From the NCBI GenBank assembly GCA_905478995.1, contig CAJQKT010000023.1:44961-108960 (forward strand): a stretch of 64,000 nt of DNA. The letters run 5' to 3'. Of the stretch, positions 3,912 to 54,157 are shown one piece after another; the first letter of the stretch is position 1, and each line of letters starts with the position of its first letter. The stretch comes from an uncultured Pseudomonadales bacterium. GTDB lineage: Bacteria; Pseudomonadota; Gammaproteobacteria; Pseudomonadales; UBA7434. The notes beneath the pieces are model-generated. The model did not search any database. It saw nothing but the letters and a program-made list of their open reading frames with translations, and was not told the origin of the DNA. Made by a program: the position numbers and the translations under genes.

Positions 3912-3967
3912 CCTACCTACCTACCTACCTACCTACCTACCTACCTACCTACCTACCTACCTACCTA
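3912..3967. repeat. Perfect tetranucleotide microsatellite (CCTA)14, = (TAGG)14 on the minus strand
   Basis: Counted directly: 14 uninterrupted CCTA units over 56 nt, starting 22 nt after the yhdP stop. The TAG stop (3961-3963) of the convergent minus-strand gene is made of repeat sequence. Confidence 0.98.
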
Positions 3968-5838
3968 CTAGCTGTGGTGATCGCACTATACCTCCGCCTT
4001 ATTATAAGCGTTAGAAGAGAGGCTAGTGCGGCAAATCCGATTAGAGGCAGGATGGGCACAGCTTCACTGCCGGCATCGGGGTCTAGTGGGGCATAGTCGG
4101 CGCCGTCGAGCACGCCATCGTTGTCGGTGTCACTGTCGTTTGGATCGGTGTCGATGCCGGGCGTATAGTTGGAAGGGTCGCCATCACGGTTAACTTCAAT
4201 GAAGTCGGACATGAAGTCTTCGTCGGAGTCGGCGTTTTCTGGGTCGAGCCCCAGACTAATTTCAACAGCATTAGCTAGGCCATCGCTATCTGCATCACCG
4301 GTCAAATCGACCACTAGAGTCATCGTGTCCAAGCCTGTCTGACCGCTATTGTCAGTGACGCTCGCCGTTATTAAATGGACCCCATCGCTAAGTGAGGGGT
4401 TGATGGCCGCGCCACTCCCTATCGGTCCATCGATGGATGAATTCCAGCTAACGCTACCGCTTAAATCGCCTTGCTCAAAATCGCTCGCAGTGGCAGTCAG
4501 AGATTGTGGTGCGCTATAAAAAATGGCGTTTTCAGCGGGAGAAGAAATCGTTGTCTCAGGGGGTAAATCATCGGTTACCTCAAGGATAAAATCGATAGCG
4601 CTGGTTGGTGTGCTGCCATCATCAGCTGTTAGGGTAATGATGGTTGACCCGGTCGAGTTAAGATTGGGTGCTATGTTGAGAGTGCGGAGTCTGCCCGTGC
4701 CGCTAAGGACGATATTATTATTGCTGACAACCGTTGTGTTGGATGAGTTACCCACTATGCTCAAGCTGCTTGGGTCAGTGTCGTTATCCATCACTGTGAA
4801 ATCCACCGTAAGAGTTTGGATGTCGCGCAGGAGTTGATTGTCTATCGTTGAGATGACGGTTTCTTGGTTGGCTTGTATGCTCCACCCCATATCGGCTAGC
4901 ACATAGGTTGCTAAGCCAATATTGCTAGCGGTGCCGGTTTGTTGGTGTTCCATCAACTGAAAGGGTTCAAATGCATTGCTAAAGTGCGAGACAGAGCTGA
5001 ACGTTGATAGGGTCGATGGTGCATAGAGTCGGGCATGCCCTTGATTAATGCCATCGGTTAACCCCCCTAAATTGTTCTGTACATGGTTACCGATAAAATG
5101 GAGGTCAGGGTCATCTTTGGCCGAAGCTGCACGTTGAGAGTTCGTCATATTAGGCCATATTTTTCCAAGGCTATGATCTTCGATGTTTAACATGTAAGCA
5201 TCGTCGCTCCCGCTTTGCTTGGCGCCGCTAGTTAAGTTGACTCGCGTTAGAAAACCGATGCCATGCATTACCTCATGCAATACCGTGGTTAGAAAATCAA
5301 TATCGTTACTGGGCGGATTGCCGTCTAAACCATAGTACCAATTGCGGTTATCAAGGCAGCCGCTATTGTTATCGACGCTGCTATTAAATGTCATTCCCAT
5401 ATCGTCAGTCGACGGATTGAGGTCTGCGCCAGATAAACTGTTGGCTTGAGCCTGTGAATAAAAAGTATTACTTAGAGGCGTGCCCAAAAAGTTTTGATGA
5501 AACCCGTTGGGCCCTGCAAGGCCGAGTATGCCTGATGTGGCATCGCAAGTTAGTGGGTCAAACTTAGCTTCAATGCTAATGGGCACGGTGCTATTGATGA
5601 CACTAGCGACAAGCGCAGCAGCATACTCAAAGACTATAACTCTTTGCTGTCCCACTGTGTTGCCAATATTGCCGCCAATGGGCAGGGAGGGGGTTGGATC
5701 GTTTAAACCCTCGTTTGCATCGTCACTGTTATTAAGGGTAATCGTTGTTGCCATCACCGATATTGGCATACCCACAAGAGCAAAGAGCAGGGCAACTAGC
5801 CCTAATTGATGGTTTTTTTTGTTTGTAATGATTGCCAT
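3961..5838 (-). CDS. Secreted mosaic protein: HExxH metalloprotease-like domain, Ig/cadherin-like repeats, TSP3-like Asp-rich Ca-binding repeats, PEP-CTERM-like tail
   Basis: I moved the start to ATG 5838 because MAIITNKKNHQLGLVALLFALVGMPISVMA reads as a signal peptide and the upstream gene stops at 5858. Zinc-site-like motif TTVLHEVMHGIGF. Asp-rich repeats DSDGLANAVE, DPENADSDED, DTDPNDSDTDNDGVLDGAD. C-terminus AVPILPLIGFAALASLLTLIIRRR. Confidence 0.8.
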   Translation of the reverse strand: MAIITNKKNHQLGLVALLFALVGMPISVMATTITLNNSDDANEGLNDPTPSLPIGGNIGNTVGQQRVIVFEYAAALVASVINSTVPISIEAKFDPLTCDATSGILGLAGPNGFHQNFLGTPLSNTFYSQAQANSLSGADLNPSTDDMGMTFNSSVDNNSGCLDNRNWYYGLDGNPPSNDIDFLTTVLHEVMHGIGFLTRVNLTSGAKQSGSDDAYMLNIEDHSLGKIWPNMTNSQRAASAKDDPDLHFIGNHVQNNLGGLTDGINQGHARLYAPSTLSTFSSVSHFSNAFEPFQLMEHQQTGTASNIGLATYVLADMGWSIQANQETVISTIDNQLLRDIQTLTVDFTVMDNDTDPSSLSIVGNSSNTTVVSNNNIVLSGTGRLRTLNIAPNLNSTGSTIITLTADDGSTPTSAIDFILEVTDDLPPETTISSPAENAIFYSAPQSLTATASDFEQGDLSGSVSWNSSIDGPIGSGAAINPSLSDGVHLITASVTDNSGQTGLDTMTLVVDLTGDADSDGLANAVEISLGLDPENADSDEDFMSDFIEVNRDGDPSNYTPGIDTDPNDSDTDNDGVLDGADYAPLDPDAGSEAVPILPLIGFAALASLLTLIIRRRYSAITTASR

Positions 5839-5857
5839 GAATGCTCGGTTTTTTGAT

Positions 5858-6331
5858 TTATTGTGCGGCGATTTTTTCTGGCAGTGGTTGCATAATATCG
5901 GCGACCACCGTGTTGTTGTCATCATCTATAATGGCGATCATGACTGACGAGGAGCGATCTGATAAATCTATAAAGCTGCCATGCACTGCTGGTGTTTTTT
6001 GTGGTGGTTGATTGTTTGGGCGCAGGTAGTTATTGATCTCATCGCGCACGGTGGGCAGTAGTCGTCGATCGATTAGCTCTGCTAGATCCTGTTCGCTCAG
6101 TGGACGGTTTGTTGTATTCAATAACGCAGACTGATTTTTATTGTCTGACGCGATTTTTTCTTTGGTGTTGGGTTGCTCGACTGCAGCGCTGGCTTGAATA
6201 TTATTGGCATGGATTTGAGGCGGCTGATCGCTCGTTACTTTAGGCTTGAGCATAAAGTGCCAGCCACTACCGATCAATACTGCCAGCAATAAGCCAAAAG
6301 CTAATGATTGCACTAAGCTGGGTTTTCTCAT
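5858..6331 (-). CDS. Hypothetical N-terminally membrane-anchored protein (157 aa), probably co-transcribed with the HExxH protein
   Basis: ORF with one N-terminal hydrophobic helix (SLAFGLLLAVLIGSGW) followed by a polar Q/N/P-rich region. Its stop lies 19 nt upstream of the next start. I recognise no family. Confidence 0.55.
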   Translation of the reverse strand: MRKPSLVQSLAFGLLLAVLIGSGWHFMLKPKVTSDQPPQIHANNIQASAAVEQPNTKEKIASDNKNQSALLNTTNRPLSEQDLAELIDRRLLPTVRDEINNYLRPNNQPPQKTPAVHGSFIDLSDRSSSVMIAIIDDDNNTVVADIMQPLPEKIAAQ

Positions 6332-43186: not shown

Positions 43187-44407
43187 ATGAACGATTTTGC
43201 GCTGCTTGGTCTGTTGATTATAGCCATTGGCATTGGTTTTTTTCTTGGTCTGCGTGCTGCCAAAAAGAATTTGGCGGGCGCAGCTTTTGCTCCGGGCAAG
43301 AGTTACTTTCAGGGGCTTAATTACTTGCTTAATGAGCAGCCTGACAAAGCTGTGGAAGAGTTTGTTTCGGCTCTCGATGTGAATACAGATACGCTTGAAA
43401 CGCACCTCGCATTGGGTAAATTGATGCGTAAACAGGGGCAGGTAGATAGAGCGATTCGTATTCATCAAAACCTGCTGGCTCGGCCCGTGCTTGAGCTCAA
43501 AGATCAGCATCAGGTTCACCTCGAATTGGCGCGCGACTTTATGACCGCAGGCTTGCTTGATCGTGCCGAAGTGCTATTGCAGGAGGTGATCGGTGAGTCT
43601 ACTGATCTGCGCAGCATTGCCCAGCGTTCCTTGCTTGATATTTATCAAGATGAAAGTGAGTGGCAAGATGCAATAAACGTAGCGCAGGCGTTATTACAAA
43701 GCCGTTTCATGAAAGCCAATGTAGAGCACAAGCGTAATCTGCAGCGCATGGTTGCGCACTTTTATTGTGAACTGGCTGAAGATTGCATGCATAGTGAAAA
43801 CTTGATTGGGGCTAGGCAGTACCTCGATCGCGCTGTAGCGGCCGACAAAACCGTTTATCGTGTGGCATTGCTCAGCGCAGCCAATGATAACGCTCAAGGG
43901 CGGCACAAACAGGTGATTAAGGTTTTATCACGACTTGAGTTGCAAGACCCTGCATGGTTCTGGATGTGTTTGCCGGCGTTGCAAGAGGCGTATGAAAGGC
44001 AGGATGCGGAGCGTGGCTTTGAGATTTTTTCACGACATTTGCGCTCACATATTGAAAATCATGATGCGCCGCGCGTGGCAATGTATTTGGTCGATCAGTT
44101 TATCGCCCGCAGTGAAGATGAGCCTATTCGGGTGCAGCAGGCCAGTGAAATACTGTCTGTTTTTGTTGCCCAGTATGAGTCGCTGCTCGCCTCAAATAAG
44201 TTAGTCGAGCTGCAAATAAATGATGCGAGTAAGCATGTGGAGAGCGATGTGTGTAGGCTTCATTCGCAGGTCAGTGAGCTGTTAAATCAACGTAACCGCT
44301 ATCGGTGTGGCGACTGTGGTTTTTCCGGGCGGCAGCTGCATTGGCGTTGTCCAAGCTGTAAAACATGGGAATCCATGCGGTCTATCGAAAATCAGTCGAC
44401 AGCCTAG
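43187..44407 (+). CDS. lapB: Lipopolysaccharide assembly protein LapB (YciM)
   Basis: N-terminal TM helix, TPR repeats, and a C-terminal rubredoxin-like CGDCGFSGRQLHWRCPSCKTW. Confidence 0.9.
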   Translation: MNDFALLGLLIIAIGIGFFLGLRAAKKNLAGAAFAPGKSYFQGLNYLLNEQPDKAVEEFVSALDVNTDTLETHLALGKLMRKQGQVDRAIRIHQNLLARPVLELKDQHQVHLELARDFMTAGLLDRAEVLLQEVIGESTDLRSIAQRSLLDIYQDESEWQDAINVAQALLQSRFMKANVEHKRNLQRMVAHFYCELAEDCMHSENLIGARQYLDRAVAADKTVYRVALLSAANDNAQGRHKQVIKVLSRLELQDPAWFWMCLPALQEAYERQDAERGFEIFSRHLRSHIENHDAPRVAMYLVDQFIARSEDEPIRVQQASEILSVFVAQYESLLASNKLVELQINDASKHVESDVCRLHSQVSELLNQRNRYRCGDCGFSGRQLHWRCPSCKTWESMRSIENQSTA

Positions 44408-44542
44408 CGTTGATACATTGTTGAGACTAGAGCTGGCAATTCGGTATTTCTTCTCGCTCACTTATGGTTTGCAAAAAGCCATGTGAACTCTCTAGCTCAT
44501 CACATTTGAATTTTTTGCCAAGCATTGATCTGTTTTTGCAAG

Positions 44543-44574
44543 CCGGCAAACGCGCAGAGCTGTGCGTTTGCCGG
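44543..44574. terminator. Strong hairpin between convergent lapB and the LTD gene (possible bidirectional terminator, no U-tract)
   Basis: Perfect 11-bp arms CCGGCAAACGC (44543-44553) and GCGTTTGCCGG (44564-44574). There is no T-run after the stem on either strand, so terminator function is only inferred. Confidence 0.4.
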
Positions 44575-44601
44575 TTGCTCAATCCCCCGATTCGCTTTGG
44601 C

Positions 44602-45489
44602 TTAGGTTTGCCTTGCTCGCGAACGATGTCGTTGTGAAGCCACCGCCAGACCCGTTAGTGAGCTGGCAAAAAATATTATGCTTGCCGGTAGCGGTATACT
44701 ACTGACATGGGGCATAAGGTTTTGACCCGCATTGAGCCCACCAAAGGTAGCATTGGCCGCCGTCCAGCTAAAGTCTTCTCGCTCAGATCCTGTGCCGGTC
44801 CGTTGTAATGAAATGCCAAGTGCAGCGTTTATGCTTTCTGAAATCCCTATATCCGTGCTAGTAAGTCCCAGCGCAGCGCCGTCTGTTGCAGTGACATCAC
44901 CTTCATAGCTTAAAAACTCTATAACCTGGCCCAAAGAGTTGATGAGTGCGACTCCGTCCGAGGGACCATTTTGCAAGCCACCGGTAACTACATGCATAAA
45001 ACCGTAACCGTTACTTTGATCTGAAAACGAGCCGGTTAATGCATTGGTTTTGTAAACACTGCCATTGTTGCCGTTATAAAAGAGCAGTTGCCAATCCTCT
45101 AGGCTGGTGCCCGCTTGGGCCACAATTTCAATACCCTCGTCGACATCTATGCCGTCATTGTCATAGTGTATTTCATTAATAAAAACGGTTGAGGCTTGAG
45201 ATTGAAGGCCTGTTAGGGCCAGTGCGAGTACACTGCCACTGCACAAAAAACGCCTGCATAAGCAGCGCAAATTTTTTGAGATGCCCTGACTTAAATGGGC
45301 TGATTGCTGGATGTCGGTGCAGCGAATTTGTGCGCGCCTGATGTTTTTGGTGGGGGGGGATTTGCCGCTGGATTGGGTGTTGAACTGCTTGCTTTGGCAC
45401 GCTGCGGTGCCAAGATTATCGGCGCTACCCTTGCTGGTGCATGCGCTTGCGGCTTGCTGGGATAAAAATAAAGTTAAGTGGTTTGACAT
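44602..45489 (-). CDS. Lamin-tail-domain (LTD) protein with VPLPA/PEP-CTERM-like C-terminal anchor
   Basis: ATG 45489 has a near-perfect SD (AAGGAGGA, 5-nt spacing). LTD-like block VFINEIHYDNDGIDVDEGIEIVAQAGTSLEDWQLLFYNGNNGSVY...GPSDGVALINSLGQVIEFLSYEG. Tail SIPLPASIIFFASSLTGLAVASQRHRSRARQT. Confidence 0.8.
   Translation of the reverse strand: MSNHLTLFLSQQAASACTSKGSADNLGTAACQSKQFNTQSSGKSPPTKNIRRAQIRCTDIQQSAHLSQGISKNLRCLCRRFLCSGSVLALALTGLQSQASTVFINEIHYDNDGIDVDEGIEIVAQAGTSLEDWQLLFYNGNNGSVYKTNALTGSFSDQSNGYGFMHVVTGGLQNGPSDGVALINSLGQVIEFLSYEGDVTATDGAALGLTSTDIGISESINAALGISLQRTGTGSEREDFSWTAANATFGGLNAGQNLMPHVSSIPLPASIIFFASSLTGLAVASQRHRSRARQT
45352..45359. repeat. G8/C8 homopolymer tract inside the 5' coding region of the LTD gene
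   Basis: Counted directly: tGGGGGGGGa on the plus strand, equal to codons TCC CCC CCC ACC (Ser44-Thr47) of the minus-strand ORF. Confidence 0.95.
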
Positions 45490-45821
45490 ACTATCCTCCT
45501 TGATAGATCGAGCGTCTAAACGTTTATGTTTTCATTTTTGGGTTGCTGTCATCATGACTGCAGCGCCACTATACGATTGGAATAAAAAATATACAAGTAT
45601 TTATTTGTATGCTAGGGTTTAATCCGTGTTTTGGTTTTTTTAATTTTCTATGCAGTATTTGGATGAGATTTTCCGGCAAAAAAAGGAGCGTTTCATGCAT
45701 TTTTTAGAGTCTAACTAAAACACAAAGCAGCGCTATTTTTGCTTAAATAGCAGTGTTTTTTCGCAAAAAAAGCACACATTCCGGCAGGATGGCCGGTTTA
45801 ATTAATGACAAGGAGTAAGTT

Positions 45822-46100
45822 ATGAAATTATCCATTCCAACCCTCATCTTGGCTTTAAGTCTATCGTCGTTAGCACAGGCGTCAGACGGCAGAGCCGCCG
45901 ATTTAATCGATATTAACAAGGCTTCTGCTGAGCAATTAGCCCAAGCGCTCGATGGCATTGGTTTGAGCAAGGCTCGAGCTATTGTTGAGTATCGCCGTGT
46001 TAATGGGGCTTTTGGTTCGCTTGAGTCGCTTGAGGCGATTAAAGGTATTGGCGAAAGCACGATCGCCAACAACAAGAATCGCATTCGTATTAGCAAGTAA
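45822..46100 (+). CDS. comEA: ComEA-family periplasmic helix-hairpin-helix DNA-binding protein
   Basis: Signal peptide MKLSIPTLILALSLSSLAQA, then INKASAEQLAQALDGIGLSKARAIVEYRRVNGAFGSLESLEAIKGIGESTI (tandem HhH). AAGGAG lies upstream of the ATG. Confidence 0.88.
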   Translation: MKLSIPTLILALSLSSLAQASDGRAADLIDINKASAEQLAQALDGIGLSKARAIVEYRRVNGAFGSLESLEAIKGIGESTIANNKNRIRISK

Positions 46101-53203: not shown

Positions 53204-53761
53204 CTAACGCTTGTACAGTGCCTCGAGTGTATGTGAACCCAAAGAATTGGCGTTGATCATATAGCCTGTTAACGCCCCCGAGGCATTTTCCGGTAAATCC
53301 AGCTTTTGAGACAAGGCGTGTACAGTAAACTGATACCGGTGAGCACCATGGCCTTCGGGGGGGCATGCTCCACCAAAGCCATGAATACCATAATCGTTTC
53401 GCATTTGCATACTCCCCTTGGGGGCGAGGTTTTTACTTGAGTCACCCGCACCGGTGGGCAAGGTCGTTATGTTTGCGGGGATATTTACAAGCTGCCAATG
53501 CCACCAGCCACTCCCGGTAGGCGCGTCGGGATCGTAAGCGGTAACCGCAAAAGCCTGAGTGCCCTCGGGCACGCCATCCCAAGAAAGCTGCGGTGACAAA
53601 TTACCGCCGTTGCAACCGAATCCCTGAAATTCTTGAGCTTTTTTCATGAACTGGCCATGCGATAGATCGGTGCTGCTCAATGAAAACGAATCCGCTAAGG
53701 TAGAACTCGTCAAAAATGTTATTAAAAGTAGTAGTGTGCTGCTTTTGATAGGTTGAAGCAT
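53204..53761 (-). CDS. YbhB/YbcL-family (PEBP, Raf-kinase-inhibitor-like) periplasmic protein
   Basis: Signal peptide, then the PEBP blocks YDPDAPTGSGWWHW and GHGAHRYQFTVHAL. Confidence 0.85.
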   Translation of the reverse strand: MLQPIKSSTLLLLITFLTSSTLADSFSLSSTDLSHGQFMKKAQEFQGFGCNGGNLSPQLSWDGVPEGTQAFAVTAYDPDAPTGSGWWHWQLVNIPANITTLPTGAGDSSKNLAPKGSMQMRNDYGIHGFGGACPPEGHGAHRYQFTVHALSQKLDLPENASGALTGYMINANSLGSHTLEALYKR

Positions 53762-54157
53762 ACGGATGTCCTTGATGAGGTAGTCAAGGGACTATTTTAC
53801 CCCATTACTTGCAGATGGGTGTATCGCGCAGTAGTGAATGTATCGTTGATGGAGTTATTGGCCAACACTTCAGTGGTATTTCATTCGGATGCTGAAGCTG
53901 AAGCCACAGTAGTTATCAATAGGCTTCAATGGAACATGTTGCATTAGCACAGCTTTTTACCGTAGCTCTTCGCATGCCGTATCCACCCCAACCGGTCATG
54001 AGCTAAGAAGGGTTGAGGCTGTGGTATGCCAAATGATCAGGCTAGAGCTGGGGGGCGGCTTGAAACGACCGGTTTACGTTGAAGCCGCTTTTCCATGTTT
54101 ATAAGTTATGGTTTTTCTTGCTGTTGACGATTTCGATACACACTGGCATGGTACGGA

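Follow-up and report, generated by a model that had tools for sequence, protein, structure and literature searches.

A C8 homopolymer in the leader of an LTD-like, CTERM-tailed surface-protein gene is probably an incidental, slippage-prone run rather than a phase-variation switch

We analyzed a run of eight cytosines near the 5′ end of a predicted surface-protein gene in a 64-kb window (the whole stretch of DNA under study), and concluded that this C8 is probably an incidental, slippage-prone homopolymer within a leader that is translated yet unconstrained in sequence, where frameshifted alleles are purged and the consensus is always ON. In the mechanism that we propose, translation would start at ATG 45489 and proceed through about 73 disordered codons, a signal-peptide-like helix, and a beta-sandwich to a membrane anchor; with one C more or fewer, a stop would be met at codon 66 or 105 and the protein would be lost. 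Frameshift alleles of this kind would have to arise more often than ordinary mutations, and purifying selection would remove them and keep them from ever becoming the consensus. We infer that slippage does occur at the run, that selection acts against it, and that the run plays no adaptive switching role.

The gene occupies 44602..45489 on the minus strand, as do all features of the gene described below, and encodes 295 aa; orthologs of exactly this length were found at 82–100% identity. Its product is predicted to combine a disordered leader, a signal-peptide-like helix, an LTD-like beta-sandwich, and a C-terminal membrane anchor of the IPLPA type. The pre-signal leader (codons 1–73, 45271..45489) was delimited by composition, dN/dS, and pLDDT, and the signal-peptide-like segment (codons 74–99, 45193..45270), which reads L/M-RCLCRRFLCSGSVLALALTGLQSQA and then STVFINE, by its hydropathy (peak at residue 81), the structural model, and homologs. 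The mature, lamin-tail-like beta-sandwich (codons 100–262, 44704..45192) was recognized by purifying selection and a pLDDT above 90, and the sorting and anchor tail (44605..44697), in which IPLPA is followed by a hydrophobic helix and a basic end as in VPLPA-CTERM/PEP-CTERM tails, by a sub-cut-off match to TIGR03370 and the model. In the AlphaFold (AF2) model, which was built on a 47-sequence alignment, residues 1–67 had no confident structure (pLDDT below 50), residues 65–94 formed a helix over the hydrophobic FLCSGSVLALALTGL followed by QSQA/STV (pLDDT 47–63), residues 103–258 formed the beta-sandwich (pLDDT above 90), and residues 270–294 formed a C-terminal helix (pLDDT 72–82). The IPLPAS motif, the helix 270–294, and an RHRSRAR tail were all visible at the C-terminus of the 295-aa protein.

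The family assignment was approached in several ways. The Pfam LTD model PF00932 matched aa 97–195 below its gathering score (19.1 vs 34.3 bits, E = 0.0017), and TIGR03370 (VPLPA-CTERM) matched aa 265–288 below its cut-off (12.8 vs 25.35 bits). Precomputed annotations placed PF00932 on many homologs and PF07589 on some, and identical proteins are named "lamin tail domain-containing" at NCBI. The top fold matches in the PDB were lamin A/C Ig-folds, which were weak (E = 0.012, probability 0.96, target TM-score 0.4). Because the Pfam, TIGR03370, and PDB matches were weak, we regard "LTD-like, CTERM-anchored surface protein" as a fair label for the predicted product rather than as demonstrated membership. 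When GTDB representative genomes were scanned with the mature domain, no close relative was found, the best match having 61% identity.

The run itself, GGGGGGGG by direct reading of the plus strand, occupies 45352..45359, which corresponds to C8 in the mRNA at nt 131–138 of the ORF, that is, codons 44–46 (TCC CCC CCC, Ser-Pro-Pro). The preliminary description had placed G8 of the plus strand in the 5′ part of the ORF starting at ATG 45489, which we reproduced; its assignment to codons 44–47 held for 44–46, the remaining codon 47 (ACC) lying outside the run, which is a trivial slip. Repeating the frame walk also returned both of the reported stops. With C7, a TAA is reached 22 codons past codon 44, giving a 65-aa product, and with C9 a TAA is reached 61 codons past codon 44, giving a 104-aa product; the first of these stops (45291..45293, codon 66) also serves the frame of a C10 that arises by indel, and the second (45176..45178, codon 105) that of a C6 that arises by indel. 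As had been claimed, both stops precede the lamin-tail domain, and the beta-sandwich is absent from both products. Thus, a G/C tract of at least 7–8 nt lies within an ORF, and apparently downstream of its real start, as is usual for phase-variable genes.

To follow the tract in relatives, the locus was read in 26 assemblies, which yielded 16 distinct gene sequences in four clades. A broken tract (C3/C4) was present in L004 (GGCCCTTCC) and L005 (TCCCCATCC), and the protein cluster of this sister clade, with at least 21 members, encodes GKAPSNK or GKGPSNK at the corresponding place. A C6 tract (TCTCCCCCC) was found in L001/L002, the C8 tract (TCCCCCCCC) in the window and in L003, L006, L073, and L079–L089, a C9 tract (AAA CCC CCC CCC) in L090, and a C10 tract (AAC CCC CCC CCC) in L074–L077 and L091. 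All of these differences were base substitutions, and the total length was identical throughout apart from an in-frame 66-nt deletion in one of the 16 distinct sequences (L078). No net frame-changing length change was observed at the tract in any of the 26 assemblies, and length differences by indel with ON and OFF alleles, as expected of phase variation, were therefore absent among the 16 sequences.

Every one of the 21 assemblies with C8 or longer was in frame, in a sample that is biased towards in-frame alleles in that exact matches to 295-aa proteins had supplied most of the assemblies, and that reflects the majority allele only, minority OFF cells being invisible in metagenome assemblies. 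With equal odds of an ON and an OFF majority, such an outcome would have a probability of 5e-7, or of 0.009 at 80% ON. Two samplings were independent of the tract. Scanning metagenome DNA with a pattern taken from the invariant SD block yielded one locus, L073, with C8; and the neighboring 92-aa gene, which is carried by about 570 collection blocks, led to 23 contigs that were read and that represented 5 distinct places (L086–L090), all with the 295-aa gene. No clusters of truncated products were present among the close homologs in the protein database. A query with OFF-frame peptides (the C9 product and the C7-frame tail) likewise recovered no truncated products, in a search that was insensitive and also missed known 295-aa proteins; its sole hit was P0149, a C10 allele that is in frame and meets a premature stop at 151 aa on a short contig. 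The gene of locus L091 (ERZ802840, 263–718) carries a C10 allele that is cut short at 151 aa by a premature stop; its contig measures 3.9 kb and departs from the usual synteny in the downstream gene, which suggests that this truncation stems from a chimeric assembly or from a rearrangement that has nothing to do with the tract.

The constancy of the tract region differs from what was seen outside the gene. Among the same genomes, the 335 nt upstream of the ATG had undergone at least five indel events, including a T5–T7 length polymorphism. Since these shorter, less slippery non-coding runs vary, length changes in the C8–C10 run must be selected against.

We also compared the run with chance expectation. 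The C8 was the longest G/C homopolymer in the window, followed by G7 at 53357, C6 at 5062, and G6 at 54050. In 100 dinucleotide-preserving shuffles of the window, G8/C8 runs occurred with a mean of 0.70, and at least one was present in 43; the single run of 8 or more in 64 kb is not above chance. Within 219 nt of leader composition, the iid expectation for a C8 was only about 2%. The G7 (53357–53363, plus strand) reads as C7 around codon 133 of the 185-aa minus-strand ORF 53204..53761 and falls in its 3′ third.

The preliminary description had proposed that expression of the surface protein may be stochastically switchable, and this was not borne out by the zero frame-changing lengths in 26 assemblies, by the 21 of 21 tracts in frame, or by a run that is broken in the sister clade and occurs once per 64 kb, as expected by chance. 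The strongest form of that proposal would make the run a true contingency locus, at which slipped-strand events reversibly turn the LTD surface protein ON and OFF, and which is maintained because switching is useful and is strongly ON-biased; we consider it unlikely. The run does have the length and position usual for such loci (the cut-off of PhasomeIt, a tool for cataloguing phase variation, is 7 or more G/C; PMC6321876), both slipped frames truncate a protein that is predicted to reside at the cell surface, and C8 has persisted across three clades at a dS of about 0.18, C9 and C10 having been reached in shallow lineages by flank substitutions that are enriched near the run. Against this stand the uniformly in-frame consensus, the chance-level occurrence of the run, the failure to find truncated products among the database homologs or by the insensitive OFF-frame search, and the fate of the run elsewhere: three clades keep it, the sister clade has a broken version, L001/L002 have an interrupted one, and L078 has lost it by deletion, with the gene retained in each case.

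A second repeat had been cited beside the first, namely that the other CTERM-tailed protein of the window also abuts a simple-sequence repeat. This is so in that a perfect tetranucleotide repeat, (CCTA)14 (window 3912–3968), lies in a convergent intergenic gap and, read as (TAGG)n on the minus strand, begins at the stop codon (3961–3963) of the 654-aa CTERM-tailed ORF 3961..5925; however, it adjoins the 3′ end. Because the repeat starts at the stop codon, with stops in all frames, its copy number cannot alter the 654-aa ORF.

How the run arose can be read from the evolution of the leader. In every lineage, A+C made up 65% of the leader DNA and T only 17%, the remainder of the gene being 50% A+C, and the leader peptide was hydrophilic and rich in Ser, Gln, and Ala. 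For leader codons 1–73, dN/dS was about 0.9–1.3, similar to the off frames, compared with 0.22–0.31 for the mature part; parsimony changes were spread over the three codon positions as 24/26/25 in the leader and as 32/20/61 in the mature part, with the third-position excess of a constrained protein visible in the latter. From the dN/dS of about 1 and the even distribution of changes, it follows that the peptide sequence of the leader is unconstrained. In L078 (JGI 3300060388, gene 601–1422), the in-frame 66-nt deletion has removed the whole C-tract region and leaves a 273-aa protein (P0131), which shows that the leader can do without some of its length as long as the frame is kept. Since nothing holds the leader to a particular amino-acid sequence, point substitutions probably built the run stepwise in this C-rich DNA. 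Mapped on the tree, it grew by single substitutions, in the order TCC CCA TCC or GGC CCT TCC, then TCT CCC CCC, TCC CCC CCC, AAA CCC CCC CCC, and AAC CCC CCC CCC.

The substitutions next to the run deserve separate consideration. Of the 26 sites that vary within the three shallow clades, 3 lay within 2 nt of the run, against an expectation of 0.35–0.51 (P = 0.006–0.015 for at least 3, calculated post hoc). Two of these three sites were the two bases immediately 5′ of the run, both changed to C, and T130C occurred on two backgrounds; both near-run changes in the clade of the window lengthened the run, from C8 to C9 to C10. Transient misalignment ("dislocation") mutagenesis at run boundaries yields flank changes of this kind, and the pattern thus hints that slippage occurs at the run. 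The enrichment could alternatively reflect selection for mutability or for a longer tract, and it is mainly on this account that we still grant the switch hypothesis a slim chance. A further version of it would be an incipient or ON-biased contingency tract, with the leader acting as an evolvability module in which slippery tracts arise, lengthen through flank substitutions (C6, C8, C9, C10), and supply reversible nulls of the surface protein at low frequency. One OFF state might even be softened, for the TAA of the C7 frame (45293..45291) sits 24 nt upstream of the in-frame TTG codon 74, with 20 nt in between, and reinitiation might occur there. We judged this version decidedly unlikely.

The preferred reading of an incidental run in a translated leader depends on the position of the start codon. 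The preliminary description had itself pointed out that a true start downstream of the tract would place the run in the 5′ UTR; the conservation of the Shine–Dalgarno (SD) sequence and ATG 45489, together with the preserved leader frame, places it in the translated 5′ part. The AAGGAGG SD, the ATG, and about 45 nt upstream were invariant in all close relatives (82–100% protein identity). The SD within a hairpin, the ATG, and a −10 block (AATCGTATAGT) were also kept in the syntenic orthologs L092 and L093, which represent two more distant lineages, sit between the ComEA-like gene and lapB, and encode leaders of about 75–85 aa ahead of the signal peptide. The predicted gene start at the upstream SD–ATG 45489, rather than at the start of the signal peptide, is thus confirmed by comparative evidence.

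The hairpin (45491..45506), CTATC-AAGGAG-GATAG with the SD in its loop, ends 1 nt before ATG 45489 and was invariant in close relatives; in L092 (2986–3001) and L093 it reads CAATC-AAGGAG-GATTG, a compensatory T-A to A-T change in the 5-bp stem. It was present in the MFE fold, and the 96-nt leader folded no better than its shuffles (z = −0.29); the putative hairpin is backed by one compensatory pair, not by thermodynamics. The GGA in the loop over the SD presumably resembles CsrA/RsmA-type binding sites, and we treat it as a candidate only. Upstream, a putative sigma-70 promoter, TTGTAT-17 nt-TATAGT (45568..45596), was read by eye in a block that is invariant in close relatives; a scan for consensus promoters and terminators returned nothing on the minus strand, and conservation is the evidence for this element. 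The roughly 108 nt between the putative −35 hexamer and the ATG were free of indels and better conserved than the coding leader. None of the known RNA elements was detected in the leader or UTR by an Rfam scan of 44400–46000 with E up to 1. Further upstream of the promoter, at window positions 45620–45800, T5–T7 runs, a 1-nt site, and a duplication of about 20 nt varied in comparison with L001, L003, L004, L078, L082, and L087.

Should the leader instead be untranslated, with the true start at the TTG of codon 74 (45268–45270) or nearby, the tract would lie in the 5′ UTR and its length would be irrelevant. A neutral rate and changes without codon-position bias are what such a leader would show, and a start at the conserved in-frame TTG 74 would yield a signal peptide of textbook form, MRCLCRRF...; most of the distant homologs begin directly with a signal peptide of 20–35 aa, and homologs with these ordinary signal peptides start the mature part at the same [AS]TVFINE. 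On the other hand, TTG 74 has no upstream SD, whereas a perfect AAGGAGG precedes ATG 45489 and is conserved throughout the three lineages compared. Frame 0 of the leader contained no stop in any sequence, whereas the other two frames contained 2–6; the probability of no stop in frame 0 after 75 neutral changes was 0.03, even though T-poor DNA by itself lowers the frequency of stop codons. An untranslated C8–C10 should moreover vary like the shorter non-coding T runs, whereas the total length was fixed and the sole indel was a multiple of three, and long pre-signal leaders are also found in the orthologs and in many family members. We consider an untranslated leader very improbable.

A sequencing or assembly artefact confined to the contig of the window, conceivable in that some sequencing technologies make errors at homopolymers, is refuted by the identical C8 in many independent assemblies from different projects and pipelines. 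Programmed frameshifting and transcriptional slippage were also considered, and were rejected because the gene is in frame at each tract length seen.

Long leaders were encountered repeatedly in this family. The small LTD/CTERM homologs P0033, P0049, P0057, P0058, P0059, P0062, and P0065 carry leaders of 50–140 aa before the signal peptide, and these leaders are mutually unrelated and of low complexity, often consisting of tandem repeats, for example TTYLRTTYLRTTYLQ and CTSSRCTSLRFTSLKCTSLRSTSL. A hypervariable pre-signal leader thus seems to be a recurrent trait of the LTD/CTERM family. As for the neighborhood, the LTD-like gene is divergently paired with a ComEA-like (HHH_3) gene of 91–92 aa and adjoins lapB in three of three lineages (window 44602–46100, L001, L004, L092, L093), and in some distant homologs LTD is fused to an extracellular endonuclease domain (P0035, PF04231). 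The ComEA-like neighbor and the LTD–endonuclease fusions may hint at a role with extracellular DNA. Our literature search found no paper linking lamin tail domains to PEP-CTERM.

Several implications emerged from this analysis. If the run were a true switch, homopolymer phase variation would reach an environmental gammaproteobacterium that has not been cultured, as well as a small surface protein of the LTD/CTERM kind; our literature search found no paper on homopolymer phase variation in marine metagenomes. As the evidence stands, the main lesson is one of caution, in that phase variation should not be called from eight consecutive G/C in the 5′ coding part of a surface-protein gene alone. 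Comparative data can reveal a frame that is held by purifying selection though the encoded peptide is unconstrained. For annotation, the by-products are an upstream SD–ATG as the probable gene start and the apparent recurrence of long, hypervariable pre-signal leaders in the family.

Among known systems, the leader recalls the ESPR of autotransporters and other long signal-peptide extensions, in which extra residues likewise precede a classical n-h-c signal peptide. The ESPR measures about 25 aa and is conserved as a motif, whereas the leader described here has about 73 aa, is predicted to be disordered (pLDDT below 50), evolves neutrally, and is swapped for unrelated low-complexity or tandem-repeat leaders in other family members. 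With the promoter poly-C/G tracts of Bordetella fim and Neisseria opc/porA, our run shares a poly-C upstream of the region coding for a mature surface protein; however, those tracts lie in promoter spacers, whereas here both the putative promoter (45568–45596) and the SD–ATG are upstream and the tract is apparently translated. The closest likeness is to the poly-G/C contingency genes of Campylobacter jejuni and Neisseria, in which, as with the G/C run of 8 described here, the homopolymer lies early within the ORF of a surface component and the gain or loss of one base leads to a premature stop. At those loci, the tracts differ by indels between isolates and a large share is OFF in each genome (cf. 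PMC6321876), whereas here the total length was constant apart from the one in-frame 66-nt deletion, all alleles were in frame, and the run of the window was absent from the sister clade; the host, too, is not a host-adapted pathogen but a Pseudomonadales bacterium of the environment that has not been cultured and is known from metagenomes. Runs differ in mutability by degrees, and those close to the cut-off may switch too seldom to be truly phase-variable (PMC6321876). Taken together, the likeness of this run to the poly-G/C tracts of Campylobacter or Neisseria is one of potential only.
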